NCBI GenBank assembly: GCA_964407715.1
Contig: CAYOWP010000001.1
Location: forward strand, 1 to 64,000
Direction: 5' to 3'
Length of the DNA: 64,000 nt
Source: an uncultured archaeon
GTDB taxonomy: Archaea; EX4484-52; JAADEF01
A model generated the notes under the pieces. The model made no database searches and was not told the DNA's origin. It was given only the letters and a program-made list of their open reading frames with translations. Made by a program: the position numbers and the translations under genes. Below are positions 6,108-57,435 of this stretch, piece by piece. Positions within the stretch are counted from its first letter, which is position 1. Each line of letters begins with the position of its first letter.

Positions 6108-6223
6108 GGCATTGTCCAATAATCCCTTATTAATAGAATTTTGTTAAGCGGAAAAGTAACCTCTTAAAGAAGCACATCAGAGCAGCAAATCCTGTAGAGC
6201 TAATGCAATTATTGGCCAATGCC
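6108..6223. mobile_element. MITE-like element, copy 1
   Basis: TIRs GGCATTGTCCAATAAT / ATTATTGGCCAATGCC; perfect 9-bp direct flank CAAAGGATA at 6099-6107 and 6224-6232. Confidence 0.85.
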
Positions 6224-6234
6224 CAAAGGATAGT

Positions 6235-6672
6235 TATAGGGTTTAGCCTCTTCATCAGGCATCTCACAGCATTCCACTTTAAAGGCCACCATGCTGCACT
6301 ATGCTAAGAAACAAGATATTTTCCCGTTAACCAATTATTTTAAAATAATGGTTAACGGAAGGAAATTCATTTCACACAGCATATTGCGACATGGTGGCCT
6401 TTTTTGAAGGTTAGCTGCTGTCCAACGGGTTTTTATATGTTACCATACTTCAAGACCTTTCGTAATAAGGATTTCTTCCTGTTAACCATATTTTATTTTT
6501 AAGATAACATGGTTAACGGGAGGAAATCGCTATCATAAGCGCATTGCAGCATGCTAACCTCTCCAAAAGGTTAGCTGCTTCTTAACCGCTTTAGAAAGGT
6601 TAGCTGCTTCGATATGCTGAATAATGAGGTTATGTTTTCCGTTAACCATTTACAAAAAACATTAGGGCAGCT
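6235..6672. repeat. Palindromic-unit array (about 3 units)
   Basis: One degenerate unit ending at 6333, then units 6349-6488 and 6510-6648 bounded by TGGTTAAC/GTTAACCA with inner TAACC-N9/10-GGTTAG. Confidence 0.88.
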
Positions 6673-10226: not shown

Positions 10227-10383
10227 GGCATTGTCCAATAATTCTTTATTGTTAAGCGGAAATTTAACGCGCAAATAGCACTTATAGCGGTAATTGCATT
10301 AGCTCTATAAGGTTTGCTACTTTAATGCGCTTCTTTAAGAGCTATTTTTCCGCTTAACAAATAGAAAATTATTGGACAATGCC
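10227..10383. mobile_element. MITE-like element, copy 2 (perfect TIRs, no visible TSD)
   Basis: GGCATTGTCCAATAATT...AATTATTGGACAATGCC with subterminal TTGTTAAGCGGAAA/TTTCCGCTTAACAA. Confidence 0.85.
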
Positions 10384-11598: not shown

Positions 11599-13899
11599 AT
11601 GGTTGTATTTGAAAAGGGAAAAAAGAGCTCAGAGGAGAGTAGGAAAGAATCCATTGTTTCTTATGATAAGGATACAAGAACTATAATAATTGATGCAAGA
11701 ACTAGCATTTATCCTCCTTCTATAGAGGATTATGAAATTTGGATGTCAACTGCTATAGATGCTTTGCTTCAATATGAGGATGCTCAAACTATTGTAATAA
11801 GGCAATCACGGGATTTTGTATATGACAGTCAACAAGTAGAGCTTCTTAGGGAGATTGCCCATATCATAAAAAGATTTGTTAAAACAGAAAAGATAATATC
11901 GATTAACAAGCTCACTCCATACAAGGATGAAGATATTAGAGATAGAGTGGCATTTGTCCAAAGAATCCTTTTGAGAGAGTTGAGAACACATCCTTTAAAG
12001 GCATATATTGATTTGGAGAGAGAAATAGTAAAATATGAGGCATATGCTAAAACAGAAAAGGATGCAAAAAAGAGGTATAGCTATGAATACTATCTTGCAA
12101 ATGCTCTACTTCCTCTAAAAAAGGCATTACAACAAACAAAGCTTGTAGAATCTGTTAAAAGCAAATTAATAGGATATAAAGGCGAGCGTGATATATACAG
12201 GGAGATTTTCTATCCTCTCATAAGGCCAAATTTTATGATAACAAGATACATGCTTTTACCTCCAAAAAACGCAGAGAAAATAAGGGAATATAAGTTGAAA
12301 GATGCGAAGGTTGAGATTTATAGATTAAGAGACAAGGCAATGTATCATTATCATCTCATTCCAGATGAGTTCAATTTAGATGAAAAAAAATATGAGATAT
12401 TGGAAACTGCAAGGACATTTCTTTCTCAATATAAGCCAAAACAAAGTGATTTTGCAATGCCTGAGAGGATGAGAGAGGTATTCTATAACATTGGAAGGGA
12501 TCTAATAATAGAGATCGCGGACAACAAAAAGATTTCACTATCCTCAAAGGATATTGATTTCCTCGCAAATATCTTGGTAAGATATACTGCTGGCTATGGC
12601 ATATTAGAGGTTTTTCTTGAGGATGAAAATGTGCAAGATTTCTTCATAAATGCACCAATAGGCATTACTCCAATTTTTATAAATCATGCAGAATATGGAG
12701 AGTGCCAAACCAATATTATTCCAAGTAGGGAAGATGCAGATGTATGGGCAACACGTTTCAGAATAGAATCTGGGAGACCATTAGATGAGAGCTCTCCTGT
12801 GCTGGATACTGAGATTCTTCTAAAATATGCTCGAGCAAGAGTAGCTGCTGTTACACGCAATCTTTCACCTGATGGATTGTCATTTGCGTTTAGAAGACAT
12901 CGAGACAGACCTTGGACATTACCTTTGTTTATAAAATACAAGATGCTTAATCCTCTTGCGGCAGGGTTAATTAGCTTTATAGTTGATGGTGCTCGTACGT
13001 TATTGATCGCAGGCACGAGAGGTACTGGAAAAACATCGCTATTAGGTAGTGTAATGGTGGAGATTCCAAGAAAGCACAGGATAGTTACTGTAGAAGATAC
13101 ATTAGAATTGCCAGTAGAGTATCTTGTGAGATTGGGATACAATATTGAGCGACTAAAAGCAAGATCAGCATTAAGCAATGTTGAGAATGAAATGCCAGCA
13201 GATGAGGCAATTAGAACATCCTTAAGGCTGGGAGATAGTTGTTTGATTGTGGGAGAGGTTAGAAGTGTGGAGGCTAAGGCATTATATGAGAGCATGAGAA
13301 TTGGAGCTTTAGCAAATGTGGTTGCTGGAACTATACATGGCGATTCTCCATATGGTGTTTTTGATAGGGTAGTGAATGATTTAGAGGTTCCAAGGACAAG
13401 TTTTAAGGCTACTGATATTATAATAATAGCAAATCGATTAAGATCAGCGGATGGATTGAGATATTTTAGGAGAGTTTCTGAGATAACAGAGGTAAGAAAG
13501 GACTGGGAAGAGGATCCAATGAGGGAGAAAGGGTTTGTTAAATTGATGGAATATAATGCAAAAAAAGACGCTTTAGAGCCAACGGATACGCTTTTAAATG
13601 GCGAGAGCTTTATCCTTAACCAGATTATGCGAAAAATAAAAGATTTTAAGGATAATTGGGAGTTGGTATGGGAGAATATATTGCTTAGAGGGAAGATGAA
13701 GCAATATCTTGTGGAGATTAGCGAGAGATATAACAAACCAGAGATTTTGGAAGCTGATTTTGTGGTTATGGCAAATGAGAAGTTCCATGTAATTACAGGA
13801 GAAGTCATAGAAGATTTTGGAGGACTTGATCATGAAAGAATATTTGCGTTATGGAAGAATTGGGTGGATAATGCTGTGAGAGAATATGGAAAACAATAG
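11599..13899 (+). CDS. Type IV pilus assembly ATPase (VirB11/TadA/ArlI-like)
   Basis: Walker A GTRGTGKT, VEDTLEL, Walker B IVGEVR, GTIHG. Confidence 0.92.
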   Translation: MVVFEKGKKSSEESRKESIVSYDKDTRTIIIDARTSIYPPSIEDYEIWMSTAIDALLQYEDAQTIVIRQSRDFVYDSQQVELLREIAHIIKRFVKTEKIISINKLTPYKDEDIRDRVAFVQRILLRELRTHPLKAYIDLEREIVKYEAYAKTEKDAKKRYSYEYYLANALLPLKKALQQTKLVESVKSKLIGYKGERDIYREIFYPLIRPNFMITRYMLLPPKNAEKIREYKLKDAKVEIYRLRDKAMYHYHLIPDEFNLDEKKYEILETARTFLSQYKPKQSDFAMPERMREVFYNIGRDLIIEIADNKKISLSSKDIDFLANILVRYTAGYGILEVFLEDENVQDFFINAPIGITPIFINHAEYGECQTNIIPSREDADVWATRFRIESGRPLDESSPVLDTEILLKYARARVAAVTRNLSPDGLSFAFRRHRDRPWTLPLFIKYKMLNPLAAGLISFIVDGARTLLIAGTRGTGKTSLLGSVMVEIPRKHRIVTVEDTLELPVEYLVRLGYNIERLKARSALSNVENEMPADEAIRTSLRLGDSCLIVGEVRSVEAKALYESMRIGALANVVAGTIHGDSPYGVFDRVVNDLEVPRTSFKATDIIIIANRLRSADGLRYFRRVSEITEVRKDWEEDPMREKGFVKLMEYNAKKDALEPTDTLLNGESFILNQIMRKIKDFKDNWELVWENILLRGKMKQYLVEISERYNKPEILEADFVVMANEKFHVITGEVIEDFGGLDHERIFALWKNWVDNAVREYGKQ

Positions 13900-15991
13900 T
13901 ATTAGAGAGGAATATGTATCATCATTGGAAGATATCACATCTAAGGAGTATAGAGAATTCAAGAAAACCATAGATGAGAGCAGAAAAAGAAGACATTGGT
14001 ATGAGAAATTAGCAGGTTATGTTAGTGCTATTGATATTGAATTATCTCCAAAGGACAGAGAAAAAATAGAGAGAGGGATAAGATTCTCAGGATTGAATAT
14101 AAAGCCCAGAGACGTGTTTTTAATACCTTCTGCTTTCTTCTTAGTTTCCTTGCTCCTTCAAATAATTTTTTACATAGCAATCAAGGTTCTTGAGAGCAAA
14201 CTTAGTGAACCTCAAAATCTCATTGGGAAAATTCTATATCCAGGAAATTGGCCCGTTATTATAAAATTTCTCCCTATTTTAATAGGAGTAATAGGAGCAT
14301 ATTTTCTTTATAAATATCCTTTTATGATATCCACACGTAACAGATTGAGATATGGAGAGGAATTGTTGATGGCTATAGTGTATATGATAGTTTATCTTAG
14401 AACCTCTGGGAACTTAGAAGGTGCTTTAAGATATGCTGCTCAGAATACAAGAGGAAAAGTCTCTCAGGATCTCAATGAGCTTTTATGGAAGATTGAGATG
14501 AGAAGATATCTAAGTGCCTATGAAGCTCTCAATGATTATGCGAACTTATGGAAGGATTATATGAAGGAGTTCTCTCAGGCAATATATCTAATCAACGAAG
14601 CTATGATGGAGCCAGAGACCTCGCGTAGAGACATGCTTTTGGAGAAGGCATTGGGCGTTGTTTTGGATTCCTATAATGAGAAGATGAAGGCATATTCTCG
14701 TGCTTTGGAGTTGCCTATTCAGGTTATACATGCATTTGGTATTATTTTGCCAGTGTTGGGTATGGTTGTATTGCCTATCTTGACAATCTTGCTGAGTGAT
14801 TCAATAAAAAACTTATCATTTTATTTAATATCTTTCTATGATATTGTTCTTCCTATTGTTCTTATGTTCTTTATTAATAACACCTTAGAGAAGAGACCTC
14901 CTACTTTTGGGAGAGTAGATGTTAGCAGGCATCCATCACTGCCAAAAAAAGGGTATTTCAGAATGTGCTATAAAGAAAAAACCATTGACATTAAAATATC
15001 TCATGTGCTTTATGGCGCATTATTTTTCTTTCTCTTACCTTCTTCCATATTTTTCTTATATAATTATTATCTTGATGGCAATTCCTCTTTATCAATTACA
15101 TTTGCCTTGCTTTGTGTGATTTCTTTTGCGATAATGATCATGCTACATGGATTCTTAACGAGTGCAAATAGGTTATCTTTAAGAAAGGAGATAGAGGAGA
15201 TAGAGAAGGAATTTGAGGAGGCTTTGTTTGCATTAGGAAATTCACTTGCAGGAGGAGTGCCTGTAGAAAAAGGACTTGTTAGAGCGGTATCAGATATAGG
15301 AAATCTCAAAATCAAAAACTTGTTTGAGGATATCCTTAGGAATATGCATCAGTTTAGTTTGACTTTCAAAGGTGCTTTGTTCCATCCGCGGTATGGTGTC
15401 ATTAAATATTATCCCTCAGAGCTCATTAAGAATATTTTGAATATCTTATCATCTGTTATTGAGAAAGGAACTGAAAATGCTGCTTTGGCAATGATTACCA
15501 TATCAAGATATTTGAGAGACATAAGAACAACACAAGAAAAAATAGAGGATCTCCTAAGCTCTACGCTTTCAAGTATGAGATTTAATGCTTATGTTCTCAT
15601 ACCTATTGTTGGAGGTGTTATTGTTGCAGTAAGCAAATTAGTTTTGATTTTACTTCTTAAGATGTCAGGTGTTTATTCTGCTTTGTCATCCCAATTATCT
15701 GCAGAGGAGGCACAGAGCTTAATGGAAACAGGTTTTGTGTTTGATATTGAGCAAGCCATACCTTCCTCAATAACCCTCCTTATTATTGGAATATACATTG
15801 TTGAGATCTTATATATTCTTGGTATATTTATCTCGCGTACCCAATATGGATATGATGAGATAATGGAAAAACACGAGATTTGGAAGTTAACCTTGATTGG
15901 TACCTCTATGTTTGTAGCATCATATTTAGTTATTAATGGTATGTTCTCTGGTGTAATAGACAGCATCATTGATAGCTTAAGTAATGTATAA
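13886..15991 (+). CDS. Pilus membrane platform protein (TadC/ArlJ-like, two T2SSF domains)
   Basis: Multi-TM protein overlapping the ATPase stop, with two T2SSF-like segments (SGNLEGAL, GGVPVEKGL). Confidence 0.8.
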   Translation: MENNSIREEYVSSLEDITSKEYREFKKTIDESRKRRHWYEKLAGYVSAIDIELSPKDREKIERGIRFSGLNIKPRDVFLIPSAFFLVSLLLQIIFYIAIKVLESKLSEPQNLIGKILYPGNWPVIIKFLPILIGVIGAYFLYKYPFMISTRNRLRYGEELLMAIVYMIVYLRTSGNLEGALRYAAQNTRGKVSQDLNELLWKIEMRRYLSAYEALNDYANLWKDYMKEFSQAIYLINEAMMEPETSRRDMLLEKALGVVLDSYNEKMKAYSRALELPIQVIHAFGIILPVLGMVVLPILTILLSDSIKNLSFYLISFYDIVLPIVLMFFINNTLEKRPPTFGRVDVSRHPSLPKKGYFRMCYKEKTIDIKISHVLYGALFFFLLPSSIFFLYNYYLDGNSSLSITFALLCVISFAIMIMLHGFLTSANRLSLRKEIEEIEKEFEEALFALGNSLAGGVPVEKGLVRAVSDIGNLKIKNLFEDILRNMHQFSLTFKGALFHPRYGVIKYYPSELIKNILNILSSVIEKGTENAALAMITISRYLRDIRTTQEKIEDLLSSTLSSMRFNAYVLIPIVGGVIVAVSKLVLILLLKMSGVYSALSSQLSAEEAQSLMETGFVFDIEQAIPSSITLLIIGIYIVEILYILGIFISRTQYGYDEIMEKHEIWKLTLIGTSMFVASYLVINGMFSGVIDSIIDSLSNV

Positions 15992-16032
15992 AGAGTAAGT
16001 AGAAAAAATAAAGAATGCTTCAAAAAAGAATT

Positions 16033-17009
16033 TGGTTAACGGGAAGCATAGCCTTTTCATTTTGCGTATGGAAGCAGATAACCCTTAAAAAAGGTTAGAA
16101 TGCTATAATATGCTTGTGATAGGATATCCCTCCCGTTAACCATGTTTTATTTTAAAATAAAACATGGTTAACGGGAAGCATGGCCATTATCTCCACCATC
16201 TTGGAGCAGGTAACCCTTAAAAAAGGTTAGCATGCTGTGATGTGCTTTGGGAAAAGGAATTTCTCGCGTTAACCAAATTAAGAATGGTTAAGGGGAAGCA
16301 TAGCCATATCCAGAGCATATCAGAGCAGCTAACCATTGATAGAGGTTAGCATGCTGTAATATGATTGTGAGAGGGATTTCCTCCCGTTAACCATTTTTTA
16401 AAATAACTGGTTAAGTGGAAGCATAACCATTCATTTTGCGTATCACAGCATCTAACCTCTTCAAGAGGTTAGAGAGTACCTAACCTTTTGTAAAGGGTTA
16501 GCATGCTGCAATGTGGTTTGATAAGGGATTTCTTCCCGTTAACCATTTCATTTGATAAATAAAAATTGGTTAACTGGAAGCATACTTTCTTAAGAAAGCA
16601 CATTGGAGCAGCTAACCTTTTCAAGAGGTTACCATGCTGCAATGTGGTTGTGAAAGGAATTTCCTCCCGTTAACCATATTTTATCTTAAAATAACTGGTT
16701 AAGGGGAAGCATAGCCATTCATTCGGCGTATCACAGCATCTAACCTTTTCAAGAGGTTAGAGAGCATCTAACCTTTTAAAATGGTTACCATGCTGCAATG
16801 TGGTTTGATAAGAGTTTTCCCCTTAACCAGTTATTTTAAAAAATGGTTAACGGGAAGCGTAGCCTCTCAAGAGAGCATATCAAAGCAGCTAACTTTTCTA
16901 AGCGGTTGAGAAGCACCTATCCTTTTGAAGTGGTTACAATGCTGTGAGGTGGTTTGAAAAAGCATTTTTCCGTTAACCAAATTTTCAAAATACATTATTG
17001 GGCAAAATC
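16033..17009. repeat. Palindromic-unit array (7 tandem units) ending in a degenerate MITE terminus
   Basis: Units 16033-16142, 16165-16275, 16285-16393, 16408-16545, 16567-16676, 16696-16829 and 16844-16979; ATTATTGGGCAAAATC at 16994-17009. Confidence 0.95.
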
Positions 17010-17018
17010 GATGAGATA

Positions 17019-17612
17019 TCATGATAGCATGTTTTCTATATCTCTTTCGGTTTTTATTTTTATTTTTTTAAGAGTTTTTTCTTCATTAAAGGCATCTATC
17101 AGGTATACTCTTACGTTATAATCAATCTCCTTGAATCTGTTTTTTATTATCTCAAAGCTTGTTAATATGTTGATCAAGGAAGGGTTTTGGGTTTCATAAT
17201 AAGCATAGGAAAAAATTGTCTTTAGGAATAGCTTGTCAGTAAAGTGCTTGTTATATTCATATGAGGAAAATATCTTATCAAATAATTGTAGATGCTCTCT
17301 AAACAAACTCCTATAGTTTTTTATTTGCGAGATGAGTATGAATTTAAATTTTTCTCTATGCTTTTCAATCCATCTGAGTAGAGAGGTATCAAGATTTATA
17401 TATAGCTCTTCATATAGATTTCTCTTTAAAAGTACTCTATAATCATATCCCACGCTTTCCTCTGATGCTAAACCTTTAAATATTAGCTTTGTTTTCTCAT
17501 ATAAATATGAGGTCTCTGATGGAGAGACAGAGAAGATTTTTTTAAACTTCTCTTCAAGTGAGGACCAAGAGATAAGAAGTTCTGATGTCATTATAATGTA
17601 TGGTTTACTCAT
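17019..17612 (-). CDS. Hypothetical protein
   Basis: 197-aa ORF preceded by a GGGAGG SD-like motif. Confidence 0.65.
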   Translation of the reverse strand: MSKPYIIMTSELLISWSSLEEKFKKIFSVSPSETSYLYEKTKLIFKGLASEESVGYDYRVLLKRNLYEELYINLDTSLLRWIEKHREKFKFILISQIKNYRSLFREHLQLFDKIFSSYEYNKHFTDKLFLKTIFSYAYYETQNPSLINILTSFEIIKNRFKEIDYNVRVYLIDAFNEEKTLKKIKIKTERDIENMLS

Positions 17613-17669
17613 CTTATCCTCCCTTTGTGAAATTAAATTTAATATATTTTATCTCAATAAATATTATTT

Positions 17670-20600
17670 ATGTTAAACAAGTATAAATATTTAAATATTG
17701 TTTTTTATCTAATAGCGCTCTTTTTGTTATTTAAGTTTTCTTATTCTACTCCTGTTGTGATATCTGATGTTGAGGATTTCTATGATCCACTTCCATATAA
17801 TGATGGAAACATAACTATAACCGCGGTTATTAACAGAATAGATGCTGGGGAAAAGGAGGTATGGGTCTCCATACTTTCTCCGGTAGAAGAGAACCTTTCT
17901 TGGATAAAAAAGGAATTTATTGATAGCCAAACAAATAAATACTACTTTACATATAATCCTTCGCAGATAGGAACATATTTATATAAGGTATATGCTATTA
18001 ACACAAATAATGAGACATCAGAATCCCAAACACATACATTTGAAAGTGCTAAGTTCCCATATTTTGAGAGCATAGCCTACAACTCTTCTGTTAAATGGGA
18101 CAATGGAAGTGTTGAGTTCTATATTACAATGAGAAGATGGGTGGATTATAGAAATAATTCCATGATAGAATACAATGTTTCTTCAGTCATTGTTATGATT
18201 AAGGAACCTGAGATAGCAAATGTTTCTTTAACAAAGATTTCTGAGGAAGGGAATTTATCGCTATGGTATGGAAGTTTTGATCCTTCAATAATATCGCTCT
18301 ATAAATATGGAGTTTTTGATCCCATTTATAAATTTCAAGTTTTTTCAAATGATACCTATGGAAATGTATCAGTTAGTGAGGAGATGAGTTTTGTTTCAGA
18401 GGGATATTATCCAAAGATACTTGGTTCTTATATCTCTCATAAAGGAATATTGAGCGTAGGTGAAAACATAACAATATATGCAATAATAAACGATACCACA
18501 AATGCAACAAATTATTCCCCAAACATAAACAGCACAAAAATATATCTACTTAAACCAGATTTAAGTTTGATGATTTATAACATGACAAAGATAAATGATT
18601 CATATTATTATCTTAATTTTACTATAGATATTGAGGGAGATTATTTCTATAAAATCTTTGTTAGTGATGAGGAAGGAAATGAGGTGGAATCAGGATATTT
18701 TGGTTTTTCCTCTTCTCCACATATATATGATATTGTAAATATTAGTGTAAAGGTTGCCCCAAGTTGTCAGGCAAGTATTTTTCTATTGCCTGATGAGGAT
18801 AAGTTATTGGTTAATACTACTGTGATTTGGCTGAGCATATTTGAAAATCTTGGTAATGTGCCTCTTAACGAAACAACCAACATCTCAGTTGAAAAGGATG
18901 TCATATATCCAGGAGAGGAAAAGTTTGTTATTCTACCTCCAAATATTGTAGCGTATGCTCGTGATAAAGAGGAAGAGGTTGATCCTTTAGATGACACCTT
19001 TTTCTTCTTGATATGGTACACATACGGCTTACCTCTTGGGAACTATACAGCAAGAACATATTCCACATACTATGCAAATGTATCTTATGAAGGAGGATAT
19101 TTTACATGTAATGGTACTGTCAATGATACCGTGCATTTTGAATTGGTAGAAGCTATAGGTGAAACAACACCTTCTCCTATTCTTGTTATTCGTGAGATGC
19201 CGGAGCAAATATATCAGGATCCAGATTGTATAAACGATTCACAATCCTGTATAACAACAAAGGTTAGGTTGGTCTTATTTAATAGAGGAGACAAAGTTGC
19301 AGAGAACATAACATTAAAAGAGAGAATTTATTTGTATGATTGCGCATATTCCAATTCATCTCTTTGCGAGAAAATCTCACTTAAATGTGTAAATTCATCC
19401 CAGTATTCTTGTGCTGTTACCACAAATAAATCAACAGGTGAGATTGGATCATTGCAGTTTAATATGTCTGAGTCTCTTTCTCCAAGAGATTATGTAATTT
19501 TGGAGTATGAGCTTACACCACCTCCATATTTAGTGGTGTATAATGATTCGGTATATAAGTTTGAGGCAAAAGGTTCTCATAAATGTGAGGGAGATAAAAA
19601 GAAGTATGAGATTTCCGAGAATGACTTACATTATAACAAGGAGGAATACAAATTAATGCATCTTTCGCCTTTGCCTTCATTTATGTTTGATTTGACTGTT
19701 CTCTCATCTAATACAACTGAGAAAAGAAGGACATTCTCAGCAGAAAAAGACGAGGAATTTTTGATTTCAGCAGATTATATTTCCTCAATTTCCACATCAA
19801 ATTGGACCATAAACATATCATTCCCAGAGGTGTTTATAATAAAATCATGTTCATTTGTAGATGGTGTTCAATGTGAATGTCGCGTGGATAATGCGAGCAA
19901 TATTGTATATTGTGATGGCTCTTCTCTGATTTCAGAGAATGACAAGGTAGAGTTCAAAGTGACGGCTCGAACAAATATATATTCTGAATATATTCTTCCA
20001 GCATATTTCAACGATTCTATTTATATGGCAGATGAAGATTTCTTACCAGGTTTATTTATGATAAGCATACCGAAAACTGAGGTTGAAGTTCCTACTCCTC
20101 AGCCAGTTCCACAGCCAACTCCTCAGCCACAACCTGAGCCACAACCTGAAACTGGACCTGAGATTAGTGAATATCATCTTCCAAAGGTTGAGATAGTTTT
20201 GAGACCACTAAATGATACATATGTGGTATATCAAGGAGATACTTTTCCAACATATTTTGAGGTAGAGAATATAGGTAACTCAACAGCCAATAATATCACA
20301 ATCGAAGCGATACTTCCATCAGCATTATGGAATCAAAGCAAAGCATATATAGATGTTCTTAATCCTGGAGAAAAGGTTAATAGAACTTTGATGTTCTCTG
20401 TTGATGAGAATGTTGCTCCTGGTATATATGTGATACCAGTTAAGGCAATGATTGGAGATTCCATAGGGGATATAGCGTATATCACCATAAAAGTTTTATT
20501 TGCTAAGAAATTGGCTAAGATGAAGATTATTGAGATGGCACAGGAGATTGAGATCAGAGAGGATAGCAATCTTACTGTGCCTATTTTGATAAAAAACATA

Positions 20601-21050
20601 GGAAGAAAGGTGCTACATAATGTGAGTGTGAGAATAGAGAATGTGGAAGAGTGCATAGAAAAATATTCTTCTTCACGAGAAACATTAAATCTTAATGAGT
20701 CAAAGACAATATTCCTATACCTAAAATCAAAGCCTGTAAAATCAAAGGAATGCAAAGCAATAGTGATTGCATATTCTGATGAAGGAGCATATGATTTTAT
20801 GCCTGTAATCATTAAGGTATATCCAAAGCCTCCTTTATTGGCTTTGAGACGAAATCTTACGCCAATAATCTCTTTATTGTGGACATTAATATTTATACTT
20901 TATGCAGTAATAAGAAAGAGAAAGGCTATGCGTGGTGAGAGACCGAAAAGCAAGGTTCCAAGATTAATACTTTATCTTTTAATGTTAGGAGAATTATTAA
21001 TAATTATTTATGTAATTTTATGGTTAATTGGATTGGTGAGTTTGTTATGA
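17670..21050 (+). CDS. Large cell-surface protein with Ig-like/CARDB-type domains
   Basis: Signal peptide, many N-x-S/T sequons, ENIGN/KNIGR Ig-like strands, Cys-rich middle, Pro-Gln linker and two C-terminal TM helices. Confidence 0.8.
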   Translation: MLNKYKYLNIVFYLIALFLLFKFSYSTPVVISDVEDFYDPLPYNDGNITITAVINRIDAGEKEVWVSILSPVEENLSWIKKEFIDSQTNKYYFTYNPSQIGTYLYKVYAINTNNETSESQTHTFESAKFPYFESIAYNSSVKWDNGSVEFYITMRRWVDYRNNSMIEYNVSSVIVMIKEPEIANVSLTKISEEGNLSLWYGSFDPSIISLYKYGVFDPIYKFQVFSNDTYGNVSVSEEMSFVSEGYYPKILGSYISHKGILSVGENITIYAIINDTTNATNYSPNINSTKIYLLKPDLSLMIYNMTKINDSYYYLNFTIDIEGDYFYKIFVSDEEGNEVESGYFGFSSSPHIYDIVNISVKVAPSCQASIFLLPDEDKLLVNTTVIWLSIFENLGNVPLNETTNISVEKDVIYPGEEKFVILPPNIVAYARDKEEEVDPLDDTFFFLIWYTYGLPLGNYTARTYSTYYANVSYEGGYFTCNGTVNDTVHFELVEAIGETTPSPILVIREMPEQIYQDPDCINDSQSCITTKVRLVLFNRGDKVAENITLKERIYLYDCAYSNSSLCEKISLKCVNSSQYSCAVTTNKSTGEIGSLQFNMSESLSPRDYVILEYELTPPPYLVVYNDSVYKFEAKGSHKCEGDKKKYEISENDLHYNKEEYKLMHLSPLPSFMFDLTVLSSNTTEKRRTFSAEKDEEFLISADYISSISTSNWTINISFPEVFIIKSCSFVDGVQCECRVDNASNIVYCDGSSLISENDKVEFKVTARTNIYSEYILPAYFNDSIYMADEDFLPGLFMISIPKTEVEVPTPQPVPQPTPQPQPEPQPETGPEISEYHLPKVEIVLRPLNDTYVVYQGDTFPTYFEVENIGNSTANNITIEAILPSALWNQSKAYIDVLNPGEKVNRTLMFSVDENVAPGIYVIPVKAMIGDSIGDIAYITIKVLFAKKLAKMKIIEMAQEIEIREDSNLTVPILIKNIGRKVLHNVSVRIENVEECIEKYSSSRETLNLNESKTIFLYLKSKPVKSKECKAIVIAYSDEGAYDFMPVIIKVYPKPPLLALRRNLTPIISLLWTLIFILYAVIRKRKAMRGERPKSKVPRLILYLLMLGELLIIIYVILWLIGLVSLL
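20090..20160 (+). repeat. Pro/Gln/Glu/Thr-rich coding linker repeat
   Basis: Encodes PTPQPVPQPTPQPQPEPQPETGP. Confidence 0.8.
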
Positions 21051-23752: not shown

Positions 23753-24367
23753 TCTTGATAAAGAGTTTGTTAACGCAATAAGAATTTCTCCACCTATCAA
23801 CCTCTTTATAATGTTACCATGCTACGATATGCTCTCTAGAGGAGGTATATTTTGCGTTAACTAAATTTTTATTTAAAAAATCTGGTTAACGCAAGAAATC
23901 GCTTTCCAATGCACATAGCAGCATGCTAACCGCTTTCAATGGTTAGCTGCTTCAATATGTTTTCTTGATGATATGCAGTTCTCCTTAACCAAATTTTCAA
24001 AAATAAAAAATGGTTAACGGGAAGCATAACCATCACTAAAAGGTTTGCAGCATTCTAACCTCTATCAATGGTTAGCTGCTGTGATGTGCTGAATGAATAG
24101 GTTATGCTTCCCCTTAACCATTTTAAAAAATAATAAGATATGGTTAACGCGAGGAAATCCCTCTCATAAAAGGTTTGCAGCATGCTAACCTCTTGAAAAG
24201 GTTAGCTGCTTCCATACGCAAAATGAAAAGGTTATTTTTCCCCTTAACCATTTTATTTTATTTAAAAAATCTGGTTAACGCGAGGAAATCGCTTTTACAA
24301 CCATATTGCTTTAAAATGGGTTAGCATGCTCCAAGGTGCTTGTGGAAGCGATTTTCTTCCGTAACCA
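23742..24367. repeat. Palindromic-unit array (5 units, mostly reverse orientation)
   Basis: Degenerate terminus TGTGCCAATAAT, then units starting near 23768, 23883, 24011, 24141 and 24272. Confidence 0.93.
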
Positions 24368-24380
24368 ATTAACAAATTCA

Positions 24381-24469
24381 GGCATTGTCCAATAATTCTT
24401 TATTGTTAAGCGGAAATTTAACGCGCAAATAGCACTTTTTTTGTTAATAGAGAATTATCGGACAATGCC
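24381..24469. mobile_element. MITE-like element, copy 3 (internally deleted, 89 bp)
   Basis: TIRs GGCATTGTCCAATAAT / ATTATCGGACAATGCC; flanks ACAAATTCA and ACCAATTCA (8/9 match). Confidence 0.85.
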
Positions 24470-28671: not shown

Positions 28672-28832
28672 AGTATGCTCAATAATTCTTTATGGTTAAG
28701 CGGAAAGTATACCTTATCAATAGCACATCAAAGCAGCCAACACTCTTGAAAAAGGTTAGCATACTGCAAAACTTTAGGTAAAGATATGATTTCTGTTAAC
28801 CAAATTTTTAAAATACGTTATTGGACAAAACT
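28672..28832. repeat. Single palindromic unit with degenerate MITE termini
   Basis: AGTATGCTCAATAATTCTTTATGGTTAAGCGG...GGTTAGCATACTG...GTTAACCA...TTATTGGACAAAACT. Confidence 0.8.
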
Positions 28833-28991
28833 GGAATTGTCAAAAAATTTTTGATGAAGGTCTGTTAACAAGAAAACTTATTCTTGCAATCGCATTAGCT
28901 CTCTAAGGTTTGCTTTCTCTAATACGCTTCTTTAAAAGGTTACTTTTCCGCTTAACAAAATTTTGTTAATAGAGAATTATTGGACAATGCC
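28833..28991. mobile_element. MITE-like element, copy 4
   Basis: GGAATTGTC...ATTATTGGACAATGCC; perfect 9-bp flank GACAAAACT at 28824-28832 and 28992-29000. Confidence 0.87.
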
Positions 28992-32532: not shown

Positions 32533-32814
32533 TGGATAGGTTATGTTTTCCGTTAACCATTTTTAAAATAATTGGTTAACGGGAAGCATAACCTATCCAA
32601 AGCATATTGCAGCAAGGTATCCTTTCAAAAAGGTTAGCTGCTTCAGTCTGCTGGATAAAAGGGTTATGTTTTCCGTTAACCAAATTTTTATTTTAATGAA
32701 AAATGGTTAACGGGAGGAAATCGCTTTCTCAAGGCACATTAGAGCATGCTAACCCTCTACAAAAGGTTAGCTACTTCAATACGCCAAATGAAAGGGTTAT
32801 ACTTCCCGTTAACC
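32533..32814. repeat. Palindromic-unit array (2 units plus a partial)
   Basis: Units 32573-32682 and 32704-32814, with a partial arm upstream. Confidence 0.9.
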
Positions 32815-32875
32815 GATTATTTTGCATAAATAAAAAATAGAAAAATTTTTTAATTTATGTGAGAAAGGAAGATTT

Positions 32876-35373: not shown

Positions 35374-35495
35374 AGTATTGAGCAGCAAACTTTGTTAACG
35401 GGAAGCATAGCTTTATACAAAGGGTTAACTGCTCTCATACACTTCTTTGAGAGGTTATGTTTCCGCTTAACAATAAAGAATTATTGGACAATGCC
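35374..35495. mobile_element. MITE-like element, copy 5
   Basis: Perfect right TIR ATTATTGGACAATGCC and degenerate left end; direct flank TGACCTTAT at 35365-35373 and 35496-35504. Confidence 0.83.
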
Positions 35496-38362: not shown

Positions 38363-38862
38363 TGGTTAACAGGAAAAATCCATTTTACAACCACATTGCA
38401 GCGTGATAACCTTTTTATTTTTGGTTATCTGCTTTGCAATGAGCTTTTTAGCAGATCCTGTTTCCTGTTAACCATTTTTGTTTTGGTTAACGGGAAACAT
38501 ACCTTATCGAGAAACCACATTACAGCATCTAACCATTCTAAAGAGGTTAGCATGCTGTAATTTGGCTTTGAAAAGCGATCTCTTCCCGTTAACCATTTTT
38601 GTTTTGGTTAACAGGAAACATACCTTATCGAGAAACCACATTACAGCAGCTAACCCTTTAAAGCGGTTAGCATGCTGTAATGTGCCTCGGAAAAGTGATT
38701 CTCTCCCGTTAACCAATTTTTATTATTTTTTAAATTGGTTAACTGGAAACATACCTTTTTCATTTGAGGTATTAGAGCAGCTAACCTTTCACTTGGGTTA
38801 GCATGCCGCAAGAGCTTTATGATAGCGATTTCTTCCCGTTAACCATTTATCTGCGTTAACCA
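38363..38862. repeat. Palindromic-unit array (4 units)
   Basis: Units start near 38363, 38484, 38605 and 38736; the second and third share a near-identical left half. Confidence 0.93.
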
Positions 38863-38946
38863 TTATCTTTAAAATAAATCAAGAGATTGTTTCAGAGAAG
38901 CAGAGATATTGTGGTATCAAAGAAATTTGTGTAAATATGAAGAGAA

Positions 38947-46241: not shown

Positions 46242-46375
46242 AGCATTGTCCAATAATGTGTTTTGAGAAATTTTGTTAACGGGAAACATAGCTATATTTA
46301 AAGGATTAAACTGCTATAAGTGTTATTTGCGCGTTAAGTTTCCACTTAACAAATGGAGGATTATTGGACAATGCC
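46242..46375. mobile_element. MITE-like element, copy 6
   Basis: AGCATTGTCCAATAAT...ATTATTGGACAATGCC; flanks TATAGGGTG and TATAAGGTG (8/9 match). Confidence 0.85.
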
Positions 46376-47709: not shown

Positions 47710-47980
47710 AAATATTCTTCTGTTAACCAAAAATAAAAAATGGTTAAAGGGAAGCATAGCCTATTCATTTGGCATGTTGAAGCAACTAACCTTTCATAGA
47801 GGTTAGCATGCTGTAATGTGCCTTGTAGAAGGGATATTCTTCCGTTAACCTTTTATTTTAAATAAAAAATGGTTGGGTGAAACATAACTTCTTAAGAGAG
47901 TATGTAACAGCAGCTAACCTGCTTAGAAAGGTTAGCTGTCTTGATATTCTGAATGAAGGGAGTAGCCTTTTCGTTAACCT
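47710..47980. repeat. Palindromic-unit array (2 units plus a partial)
   Basis: Units at about 47741-47850 and 47870-47979. Confidence 0.88.
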
Positions 47981-57167: not shown

Positions 57168-57435
57168 TGGTTAACGAGAAAGCATCTTTTCCAAGAGGTT
57201 TAGAGCATGCTAACCATTGAAAAAGGTTATGTGCTGCAAGTCGGTTTTTGATATTGGGCATCTTCCCATTAACCAAATTTTCTAATAAAAAACAATTGTT
57301 AACAGGAAAATATCGATATTCTCCAGTGAATGCGGCATGCTAACCTTTTGATAAGGCTAGGTGCTGTAAATGTGCCATTTGAATGGCTATACTTTCCCTT
57401 AACCAATTTTAAATAAAAATTGTTAACGAGAAATA
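57168..57435. repeat. Palindromic-unit array (2 diverged units plus a partial)
   Basis: TGGTTAAC...GCATGCTAACC-N9-GG(T/C)TA...TTAACCA twice, between convergent atpD and hjc. Confidence 0.85.

Follow-up and report, generated by a model that had tools for sequence, protein, structure and literature searches.

The intergenic region that starts at position 16033 of the window (the whole 64,000-nucleotide stretch analysed here) raises the question of what kind of DNA is repeated there: a small RNA gene, a platform for a host protein, or a mobile element? An earlier note, made from the letters of the DNA alone, had placed seven tandem units of 109–111 or 134–138 bp at this site, and about 26 units at eight places in the window. 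All seven have now been recovered (Table 1). A profile built from the units returned 34 non-overlapping matches in the window, and the family-1 count by profile is 26 units (one of them partial), at 6241, 16033, 23799, 28693, 32573, 38363, 47741 and 57168, in agreement with the places first reported. Three further profile matches, at 6143, 10264 and 35411, belong to a related family (family 2). Tandem Repeats Finder gave arrays starting at 16033, 16606, 23918 and 38462. The 21-nt left terminus of the unit, with up to three mismatches, occurs 19 times in the window and never in 100 shuffles, and the 11-nt right terminus (up to one mismatch) 41 times against a shuffle mean of 0.14. Terminus counts so far above the shuffles exclude a chance origin of the window repeats.

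Table 1. Repeat features of the window, positions being counted from its first nucleotide
Feature	Position	Strand	Details
Family-2 miniature element	6108–6223	.	terminal inverted repeats at both ends; perfect 9-bp target-site duplication (9/9)
Family-1 array, divergent intergenic region	6241–6648	-	one partial and two long units (6349–6488, 6510–6648)
Family-2 element, single internal unit	10227–10383	.	termini TTGTTAAG...
Family-1 array, seven co-oriented units	16033–16979	+	between convergent genes 13886–15991 (+) and 17019–17612 (-); short units 16033–16142 (110 bp), 16165–16275 (111), 16285–16393 (109), 16567–16676 (110); long units 16408–16545 (138 bp), 16696–16829 (134), 16844–16979 (136)
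Degenerate family-2 terminal inverted repeat	16988–17009	-	adjoins right end of the 16033 array
Family-1 array, about five units	23799–24367	-	complete units 23883–23991, 24011–24120, 24141–24250
Short family-2 element abutting the 23799 array	24381–24469	.	inverted-repeat pair with 83-bp spacing; flanking 9-mers agree at 8/9
Solitary family-1 unit	28693–28802	+	degenerate family-2 repeat-like sequence at both ends
Family-1 array, divergent intergenic region	32533–32815	-	partial unit, then 32573–32682 and 32704–32815
Truncated family-2 element	35392–35495	.	one unit and right inverted repeat at 35478–35495
Family-1 array, four units and terminal fragment	38363–38868	+	38363–38474, 38484–38595, 38605–38715, 38736–38845
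Family-2 element, single unit	46242–46375	.	flanking 9-mers match 8/9
Family-1 pair, convergent intergenic region	47741–47979	+	profile matches
Family-1 pair, then degenerate unit	57168–57405	-	units 57168–57275, 57296–57405

Architecture of the array and its units

The interval first assigned to the array has to be shortened at its right end: the last 22 nucleotides are not a unit and represent the degenerate family-2 repeat of Table 1, which scores 10.4 against 0.86 for the 99th percentile of 3000 control windows. The linkers between the seven units are AT-rich and 9–22 nt long. That linkers are AT-rich had already been noted, and this holds; that they are often palindromic holds only to a moderate degree (mean self-complementarity 0.48 over 90 linkers). 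A perfect inverted repeat is found at 28974–28991, near the solitary unit at 28693–28802.

What is a unit made of? Each family-1 unit consists of two homologous arms of 50–51 nt, head to head, with a loop of 9–10 nt between them; the term 'nested palindrome', first applied to it, is better replaced by that of two homologous arms in inverted orientation. Left arms are 59% identical to reverse-complemented right arms. Every arm opens with TGGTTAA[CG]GGGAA and closes with GCTAACC; as both carry the motif, a short unit has four copies of GGTTA[AG]C in alternating orientation, and a long unit has six because the inner motif and the loop are duplicated. This duplication, previously described as a doubled central hairpin, is present in the consensus of 65 distinct long units, in which inner motif and loop occur twice, and in the profile matches, which run through model positions 1–66 and then 39–110. 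Similarly, the consensus proposed at the outset agrees with that of an alignment of 54 units. Among 172 units (contig C8 included, see below), 100 measure 105–114 bp and 69 measure 133–142 bp. In alignments the units begin with TGGTTAA[CG]... and finish with ...TTAACCA, and their terminal inverted repeats are about 14 nt long (TGGTTAA[CG]GGGAA and its complement).

Arm junctions are of two types, the 9–10-nt loop and a T-run/A-run linker of 18–21 nt, which is also the modal linker length. The linkers are AT-rich, the same ones recur in different arrays, and as a rule a T-run precedes an A-run in them. T-runs flank the units on both strands: at least four T are found within 10 nt past the unit end, on the outward strand, at 198 of 314 ends, compared with 51 ends for at least four A. 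Adjacent units are mostly co-oriented (81 of 90 pairs). Genome-wide, 78% of GTTAAC sites lie within repeats (460 inside, 129 outside). Restriction-site avoidance was considered and dropped, GTTAAC outside the repeats standing at 0.81 of expectation, which is no notable avoidance. A CRISPR array was likewise dismissed: the units are 110 or 138 bp long and about 67% alike, and the 'spacers' are recurring AT-rich linkers of 8–30 nt.

Abundance and restriction to one genome

The repeat is real, abundant and intergenic, as the earlier note had claimed. In the non-redundant genome (about 0.85 Mb) the complete units number 157, spread over about 120 intergenic loci; the repeats take up some 4–5% of the DNA. 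The count of 157 drops contig C8 (43,696 bp duplicating C9), while the profile total of 458 matches (38,154 bp, 130 loci) and the 172 units measured above include it. Array bases overlap open reading frames of at least 80 aa at 1302 of 40,705 positions, and 84 of the 117 intergenic regions of at least 300 bp hold a copy. One repeat system takes up such a share of the length and of the longer spacers, although non-functional DNA should tend to be lost from archaeal genomes reduced to this size. Of 114 loci that could be placed, 60 stand in divergent spacers, on the promoter side, an enrichment over the 144 such spacers among 728 genome-wide; arrays have no orientation bias with respect to genes (8 co-oriented, 11 anti-oriented).

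How far does the family extend beyond this genome? BLAST found it in one of 41 genomes, and a covariance model in one of the 42 genomes of a phylum-wide set that includes the same genus. Scanning the genome and its relatives, as had been suggested, leaves the 157 complete units without a counterpart in the 41 other phylum genomes, and an 82-kb sample of a same-genus genome held no abundant repeat. The same-genus ortholog of gene 13886–15991 is 66% identical, and the orthologous gene end is followed by a spacer of only 81 bp; the downstream neighbour is not homologous in the same-genus genome, and synteny is therefore broken at the 16033 array. Among public genome contigs, the exact junction pattern gave only single matches, in 35 stretches, and in metagenomes every multi-copy match came from sequence at least 99% identical to this genome. 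Three junction-pattern matches in a Chromatiales bin were set aside, the bin having an unrelated repeat of its own. In viral contigs, single matches numbered 11 for the 17-nt family-2 repeat and one for the 18-nt family-1 terminus; from the approximate size of that collection, we judge these to be probable chance matches.

An Rfam search, also advised at the outset, places the repeat in no Rfam family. The sole match above threshold in the window is the 3' end of 16S rRNA, and in permissive mode all matches stayed far under threshold (best 29.8 bits against 80) and were to generic hairpin (microRNA precursor) models. We found no account of the repeat in the published literature, the supplementary MITE lists of PMC11602168 lying outside that search. 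'Apparently undescribed', as the earlier note had it, is right in that nothing was found in print; 'categorically undescribed system' is too strong, since bacterial REPINs/BIMEs and MITEs are built in the same way.

Folding and conservation of the units

Could the unit encode a small structured RNA, or act in cis as an RNA hairpin, transcribed from a promoter in the linker to the next T-run? Every unit folds into a long hairpin, and as RNA these hairpins have z-scores of -5.0 to -9.2 against shuffled controls; units within arrays share one orientation in most cases, and T-run/A-run linkers could hold TATA-like boxes and oligo-T terminators, which are archaeal signals. However, DNA folding parameters give the same hairpins, neither strand folds better than the other (difference 0.51 kcal/mol, p=0.39), and chimeric units fold as stably as native ones (-36.29 versus -36.39 kcal/mol, p=0.30). 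The check for compensatory covariation that had been recommended found none: in a hand-built 36-pair structure, 77.9% of cells were paired, compared with 78.4% when partners were shuffled, 441 of 500 shuffles being as high, and RNAalifold gave no consensus pairs for 54 units. Array orientation is independent of gene direction, and no Rfam family reaches threshold. With no covariation, strand asymmetry or orientation bias, the structured-RNA option raised in the earlier note is therefore not supported, and we consider it very improbable. The hairpin stems come from conserved inverted motifs and not from compensating changes.

The motifs themselves are strongly held. Close unit pairs differ at 6.6% of conserved columns versus 33.5% of variable columns, and arms at least 85% alike at 4.9% versus 19.6%; in a held-out half of the data, close copies included, motif columns change 4–5 times slower than variable ones. 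This is conservation beyond the neutral decay of one master copy, the contrary case that had been put forward with the original proposal. Furthermore, there has been reshuffling of arms, from unit to unit and from locus to locus. Of 89 units, 5 have left and right arms with the same nearest neighbour, and of 62 units, 11 have their nearest neighbour inside their own array. Units of one array are 73% identical, those of different arrays 67%. Arm subfamilies, analysed in the 55 of 89 units that a motif rule split into arms (the other 34 being left out), are scattered over many loci. Over short times the arrays are not visibly unstable, since contigs of a second sample tile 16139–16716 without differences; flanking coding contigs have up to 5 differences per 281 bp. 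DNA contigs of three runs compared with 13900–18900 represent mostly cross-mapping from other arrays, with exact tiling in two samples.

One explanation for such conservation would be a host function: the motifs may bind a host protein (a chromatin or nucleoid organizer, or a boundary factor), or the units may be bidirectional terminators or insulators, in either case kept by selection on the host. The slow motif columns, close copies included, the tightly kept unit lengths, the outward T-runs, the concentration of GTTAAC sites in the repeats and the identity of the 16033 array in the second sample all argue for this. However, slow motif change also fits selfish copies, because only intact copies get copied again, and the repeat occurs in none of the 41 other phylum genomes, with only the 81-bp spacer at the one orthologous end in the same genus. 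The loci are also enriched in divergent spacers, where terminators are unneeded, and no binding-protein candidate emerged. We regard a host-selected lattice as unlikely.

A related mobile element and the nature of the arrays

Family 2 is a textbook MITE: non-coding and multicopy, 110–380 bp long, with terminal inverted repeats of 18–22 nt and a 9-bp target duplication. It is related to family 1 and younger. Its elements hold one to three units of the same module, and its copies are 88–93% alike over about 250 bp; the internal units have variant termini (TTGTTAAG) and reach 20–56 bits against the family-1 profile. Flanking 9-mers agree at 8 or more of 9 positions in 16 of 42 elements, compared with 0.16% of mismatched controls at 7 or more, and these target duplications mean that real transposition took place in this genome. 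The family-2 inverted repeat (up to two mismatches) is found 100 times here and 0–1 times in each of 41 relatives; in a genome of the same family, a lone family-2-like repeat proved to lie upstream of an ordinary phosphatase-like gene and not in an insertion sequence. The 'enzymatic spread' proposed in the earlier note thus gains indirect support from a related family with a 9-bp target duplication. No such duplication was detected at the family-1 units themselves (11 of 67 versus 18% in controls at k=4; 5 of 67 versus 6.3% at k=6), where array ends are blurred by degenerate units.

Are the arrays, then, swollen interiors of family-2 elements, each a BOX-like single insertion in which the unit was amplified in place while the terminal repeats decayed? 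Both inverted repeats surround two or three units at C14:110–493, C5:23528–23859, C7:52449–52796, C2:102065–102429 and C4:53818–54187, degenerate repeat-like sequence flanks the solitary unit at 28693, and 11 of 94 large-array flanks, including the right flank of the 16033 array, score above the control 99th percentile (about 1 expected). However, the other 83 flanks score like controls, no large array has both ends, and 42 of 48 lack the inverted repeat on either side (up to three mismatches). With 83 of 94 flanks lacking it, most arrays are therefore not simply swollen family-2 elements. The variant termini and 20–56-bit scores of the internal units also speak against this origin, as do the arm subfamilies common to many arrays, which purely local amplification leaves unexplained, and we hold it to be improbable.

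Which enzyme could have moved the units? Nine Pfam transposase families had no match at E<=0.01 in the assembly, which is 92% complete. One of the nine is Y1_Tnp (PF01797, the RAYT type), for which all six frames were searched and a control search was positive in 6 of 14 reference genomes. A tenth family, the TnpB zinc ribbon, reached 16.9 and 16.4 bits, under the 26.3-bit cut-off. No autonomous element with family-2 ends is present in the assembly. At a spacing of 450–5000 bp only two pairs of family-2 inverted repeats occur; they enclose genes for a HAD hydrolase, a DUF4325 protein and two unknowns, none with transposase features. Ten genes between neighbouring arrays were also rejected as candidates; they are housekeeping or unannotated, one being a winged-helix protein at C6:11124–11852, and none looks transposase-like, though four carry no annotation. 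Of the genes that the earlier note advised looking for, no transposase above cut-off in the ten Pfam families and no candidate binding protein came to light.

The earlier note had pointed to REP/BIME-type elements as analogues, and rightly so: inverted arms, alternating palindromic modules and extragenic arrays are common to both. Passages of 10.1101/2021.07.10.451892 and PMC3116915 describe REPINs as ~100 bp long, with hundreds of extragenic copies, two inverted repeats that make one hairpin, conserved ends, a variable interior and, in some cases, ordered tandem clusters. Set beside those passages, family 1 is similar in that its inverted arms form one ~100-bp hairpin and its copies are extragenic and number in the hundreds (157 complete units); nor was a target-site duplication detected at its units, whose array ends are blurred. 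However, its arms are 50 nt long versus about 20–25 nt, its copies stand mostly in arrays and not singly, its arms are heavily reshuffled, and its ends are TGGTTAAC, where part of PMC3733652 gives GTAG or CGTC as REP tags. One passage of 10.1101/2021.07.10.451892 states that REPINs were not detected in archaea. Unlike a REPIN-RAYT system, in which the RAYT is usually single-copy and repeat-flanked, the 92%-complete assembly has no Y1/RAYT gene.

Enterobacterial BIMEs are REP mosaics of alternating orientation with conserved linkers, and their binding by IHF, DNA gyrase and DNA polymerase I is a bacterial feature. As BIMEs do according to sections of PMC3116915, the arrays have palindromic modules that alternate in orientation, recurrent linker types and an extragenic tandem arrangement. 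They differ in having no sequence similarity to BIMEs and in being enriched in divergent spacers and not at 3' gene ends. BOX elements have a modular boxA-boxB(n)-boxC structure, and a handful of small elements here similarly consist of two terminal modules around n internal units, as in BOX of Streptococcus pneumoniae; unlike BOX, most large arrays are without terminal modules (42 of 48 have no terminal repeat), and there is no sequence similarity. Part of PMC10969869 reports that BOX, RUP and SPRITE elements cluster and insert next to or into each other, and in this the elements here resemble them. Like MITEs, family 1 ends in inverted repeats (about 14 nt) and family 2 has both 18–22-nt inverted repeats and a 9-bp target duplication; unlike MITEs, family-1 units lie in tandem arrays, no target duplication was detected at their blurred array ends, and the assembly contains no autonomous partner with the same ends. 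Prokaryotic MITEs include archaeal ones (Sulfolobus, Haloquadratum and others). According to PMC11602168, MITE density among archaea peaks in small DPANN-type genomes, at 146 and 105 per Mb. Features that are usually separate, namely REPIN-like hairpin doublets, BIME-like arrays and a true MITE with the same module, are united here in one system.

On balance, we lean towards the reading that family 1 consists of non-coding, DNA-level palindromic repeats of REPIN/BIME-like kind, confined to one lineage and, we infer, selfish. A DNA enzyme, either transposase or recombinase, would have recognized the GGTTA[AG]C motifs and copied the units. A copy whose motifs had been damaged would leave no descendants, so that the motifs stay conserved and the remainder drifts. 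Arrays would grow and become scrambled by unequal or ectopic recombination and by template switching at the conserved motifs; the co-orientation of neighbouring units and their higher identity inside arrays speak for such local growth. The enzyme may have been lost, may be unassembled or may come from an unrecognized family. Since a T-run stands past the hairpin on either strand, a terminator or insulator role for the arrays is conceivable too, as a by-product.

A more daring version, which we think doubtful, is that the arrays form a REPIN-like replicator population, the first from any archaeon, maintained without a RAYT. Here a DNA enzyme or binding protein of a novel class would recognize GGTTA[AG]C, copy the 50-nt arms and shuffle them among some 120 loci; its gene may be one of the array-flanked unannotated ones, or it may be supplied by a partner organism or an extrachromosomal element. 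The arrays may then be co-opted as bidirectional terminators or chromosome-organizing sites in a genome of less than 1 Mb. A mobilizing or binding protein, if found, would be a new transposition activity or a new archaeal DNA-organizing protein.

Finally, the arrays of these REPIN/BIME-like repeats have a practical consequence, as the assembly is interrupted at them: contigs stop inside arrays, and the assembly contains one contig in duplicate. This makes the arrays useful for marking strain-level structure. At one array, L065 runs beyond the array end of contig C11 with different units, which may be strain variation or mis-assembly.

The array in the window and its copies in the genome

The array at window 16033-16979 consists of seven units arranged head to tail (110, 111, 109, 138, 110, 134 and 136 bp) and joined by AT-rich linkers of 9-22 nt. 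Chance is excluded as the origin of this repeat, because the 21-nt left terminus (at most three mismatches) has 19 copies in the window and none in 100 shuffles, and the 11-nt right terminus (at most one mismatch) occurs 41 times against a mean expectation of 0.14. Arrays at 16033, 16606, 23918 and 38462 were called independently by Tandem Repeats Finder. A unit-derived profile has 34 matches in the window, which we read as 26 units of this family (family 1) at eight places and three matches of a second, related family (family 2). The repeat is real and was well described in an earlier note made from the sequence alone: the 26 units fall at the eight places listed there, and its unit consensus is that of our 54-unit alignment. 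A separate 12-nt tandem repeat at window 20094-20149 (period 12 and 24, two to three copies) lies within a 1126-aa ORF (17670-21050) and is presumably a low-complexity coding repeat.

The window opens contig C1 of an assembly of 898,521 bp in 16 contigs (about 32% G+C, 92% complete). C8:7161-50856 is the exact reverse complement of C9:262-43957 over 43,696 bp, so this stretch is present twice and the non-redundant genome is about 0.85 Mb; counts that include both contigs are therefore inflated, and C8 was left out of later counts. A strict search for both termini, at most two mismatches each and 80-200 bp apart, puts the number of complete units at 172 with C8 and 157 without it. The lengths of the 172 are 105-114 bp in 100 cases, 133-142 bp in 69 and other values in three. 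With C8 included, the profile gives 458 non-overlapping matches over the whole assembly (38,154 bp, 130 loci, the longest 1008 bp), and the repeat makes up about 4-5% of the DNA. The arrays are a cause of assembly breaks, since many contigs start (C9, C12, C14) or end (C1, C3, C5, C11) within them. At the start of the window, the 3' end of a 16S rRNA gene (1-190) is followed by no 23S gene and an ORF on the opposite strand starts at 284, so the rRNA genes appear to be unlinked; in one contig from a metagenome (L065), the starts of C1 and C11 are joined across the 16S region.

The repeat is confined to this lineage among the genomes searched. BLAST with three units matched one of 41 genomes, the window's own, and a covariance model of the unit, a scan of this and related genomes that the earlier note had proposed, likewise matched one of 42, the available genomes of the whole order and phylum. 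In a public collection with one genome per species, the exact junction pattern was found in 35 stretches, once in each, none of which the unit model recognised except for one 32-nt match (28.6 bits). Three contigs from one Chromatiales bin (L023, L027, L032) share an unrelated multicopy element that contains the junction pattern and is not recognised by the family-1 model. A metagenome scan gave two contigs with several copies, each matching this genome at 99% identity or more. The locus is present in two further DNA samples, and in one of these contigs tile 16139-16716 without a difference. No abundant repeat was seen in an 82-kb sample of a same-genus genome; as orthologs there are only about 66% identical in protein (one gene only), 'lineage-specific' need not mean 'recent'.

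Unit structure, exchange between arrays and known repeats

When split at the central loop (which succeeded for 55 of 89 units, the others being missed by the motif rule), a family-1 unit resolves into two homologous, inverted arms of 50-51 nt. The identity of left arms to reverse-complemented right arms is 59%; both ends are common to the two, and a sub-terminal signature and a 1-3-nt bulge beside the inner motif distinguish them. Each arm starts with TGGTTAA[CG]GGGAA and ends with GCTAACC, so that a short unit has four GGTTA[AG]C motifs whose orientation alternates. GGTTAAC has 364 copies within the repeats and 55 elsewhere, and GGTTAGC 328 and 29. The long form contains one further inner motif pair and loop (about 28 bp); as this module is conserved over 65 distinct long units, the long form is a propagated variant and not a recurrent accident. 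The 12 nt beyond each unit end are T-rich on the outward strand (positions 3-5 are 74-85% T), with at least four T within 10 nt at 198 of 314 ends and at least four A at 51, and thus the linkers are a T-run followed by an A-run in either unit direction.

Family-1 units have a mosaic make-up. Both arms share one nearest relative in only five of 89 units, and for 11 of 62 units the nearest relative of the unit belongs to its own array; mean unit identity is 73% inside an array and 67% from one array to another. Subfamilies of arms (85% identity) occur at as many as nine loci, and the segments that family-1 arrays share at 88% identity or more mostly measure 50-150 bp, roughly the size of an arm to that of a unit. 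Of 90 adjacent pairs of complete units, 81 are co-oriented, and identical linkers recur with periods of one to three units. Arm mosaicism, shared subfamilies, co-orientation and linker periods point to a history in which units would be duplicated locally in tandem and loci would often exchange sequence at the conserved motifs.

Placement was scored on 770 ORF-based genes (86% coding), which only 1302 of 40,705 array bases overlap. Of the 114 placed loci, 60 are in divergent, 39 in tandem and 15 in convergent spacers, the genome-wide spacer counts being 144, 438 and 146, and 84 of the 117 spacers of at least 300 bp hold a copy. Bacterial REPs are located at the 3' ends of genes; the arrays here are enriched on the opposite, promoter side, which argues against a primary role as terminators.

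In architecture, the closest match is the bacterial REPIN. It measures about 100 bp, has hundreds of copies outside genes and consists of two inverted repeats that form a hairpin, with conserved ends and a variable interior; at times the copies lie in ordered tandem clusters (10.1101/2021.07.10.451892; PMC3116915). However, two defining features of REPINs are absent: no RAYT gene was found in this assembly, and the family-1 ends lack the GTAG or CGTC tag (described in PMC3733652). The alternating orientation with recurrent linkers is that of BIMEs. Family 2 fits the definition of a MITE, whereas no target-site duplication was detected at family-1 runs. We lean towards regarding family 1 as a lineage-specific, REPIN/BIME-like family of selfish DNA, related to a true MITE, whose arrays were built and scrambled by recombination. 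High MITE densities have already been reported in small DPANN-type archaeal genomes (PMC11602168), and the supplementary MITE lists of that paper may include the present elements. A full-text literature search gave no description of the terminus motif or of archaeal REPIN/RAYT or MITE arrays. What sets the present case apart is the repeat load on a genome under 1 Mb, the archaeal host and the lack of a recognisable mobilising enzyme.

RNA folding and constraint on the motifs

A long imperfect hairpin is the fold of every unit, whichever strand is taken and whether the parameters are those of RNA or DNA (z -4.6 to -9.2), and structured RNA was among the functions suggested in the earlier note. 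This pairing stems from the conserved inverted motifs alone. Chimeras of one unit's left half and another's right half (n=600) are as stable as native units (n=89; -36.29 and -36.39 kcal/mol, p=0.30), and neither strand folds better than the other (mean difference 0.51 kcal/mol, p=0.39). In a 36-pair structure, 77.9% of cells are paired against 78.4% with partners shuffled among sequences (441 of 500 shuffles equal or exceed the observed pairing), and the covariation score is 0.083 against 0.091. RNAalifold found no consensus pair in the unit alignment. Rfam gave no family at threshold for the repeat; the permissive matches were generic hairpin models far under their cut-offs. For arrays between tandem genes, orientation follows gene direction in eight cases and opposes it in 11. 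On these results selection on an RNA fold is not supported, and it is very improbable that the units are RNA genes.

Neutral decay of one master copy, which the earlier note had set as the alternative to its reading, does not account for the conservation of the motifs. Column classes (conserved, at least 85%; variable, below 60%) were set on a random half of the units and close pairs scored in the other half, over 200 random splits. Differences fell at 6.6% of conserved and 33.5% of variable columns, a ratio of 5.1 (5-95% range 3.8-7.4), so that conserved columns change about five times less in the held-out half. Single arms at least 85% alike gave 4.9% and 19.6%; for arms at least 90% alike the ratio was 2.7 (range 0-14.7), the few pairs allowing no firm figure. 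The repeat is more than a decaying one. Slow motif change fits host function and selection among copies alike, because re-copied lineages must have kept their recognition motifs, and we consider a host function for the conserved motif lattice rather unlikely.

Family 2 and candidate mobilising or binding proteins

Family 2 comprises about 50 elements, 110-380 bp long, whose boundaries are formed by a terminal inverted repeat of 18-22 nt; this repeat (at most two mismatches) has 100 copies here and 0-1 in each of 41 other genomes. The elements hold one to three units, recognisably homologous to family 1 and with variant termini. After removal of internal repeat copies, the flanking 9-mers of 42 elements match at eight or more of nine positions in 16 cases and at seven or more in 19, the latter level being reached by only 0.16% of mismatched controls; several further elements match after a one-base shift. 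Family 2 is a classical MITE that shows real transposition, and the 88-93% identity of its copies over about 250 bp makes it younger than family 1.

Family-2 copies in the window
Feature	Window positions	State
Family-2 copy	6108-6223	
Family-2 copy	10227-10383	
Family-2 copy	24381-24469	
Family-2 copy	35392-35495	truncated
Family-2 copy	46242-46375	

The arrays might be swollen family-2 elements, and the right flank of the array at 16033 (16988-17009) does carry a degenerate copy of the family-2 inverted repeat. It is one of only 11 of 94 large-array flanks that exceed the 99th percentile of controls, however, and 42 of 48 large family-1 arrays lack the repeat (at most three mismatches). Most large family-1 arrays are not bounded by it, and such an origin is improbable. 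In a same-family genome, a 1.5-kb contig (L130, G003:C94) carries at 34-54 a 21-nt sequence that agrees with 20 of 22 consensus positions of the family-2 inverted repeat, about 200 bp upstream of an inositol-monophosphatase-like gene and with no partner repeat on the contig.

A six-frame search of the assembly (E at most 0.01) gave no match to Y1_Tnp (RAYT/IS200 type), DDE_Tnp_1, Transposase_mut, rve, DDE_3 or the IS1595, IS240, IS1 and ISL3 transposase domains, and only sub-threshold matches to the TnpB zinc ribbon. The one tyrosine recombinase in the assembly (C1:72424-72912) is probably the chromosomal Xer. The genes in intervals between distant family-2 repeats, and those that arrays flank, have housekeeping roles or no annotation. 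Since the assembly breaks at arrays and is 92% complete, a mobilising enzyme may have been missed. Four ORFs of 245-627 aa between neighbouring arrays (C3:20076-21290, C7:10807-12693, C4:54518-55312 and C10:259-999) have no Pfam or NCBIfam match, and the two longest match no solved structure. Although most long spacers hold arrays anyway, a possible repeat binder is the 241-aa protein at C6:11124-11852, which has family-1 arrays on both sides and a C-terminal winged helix-turn-helix (DUF7343, with weak TrmB/Lrs14-like matches).
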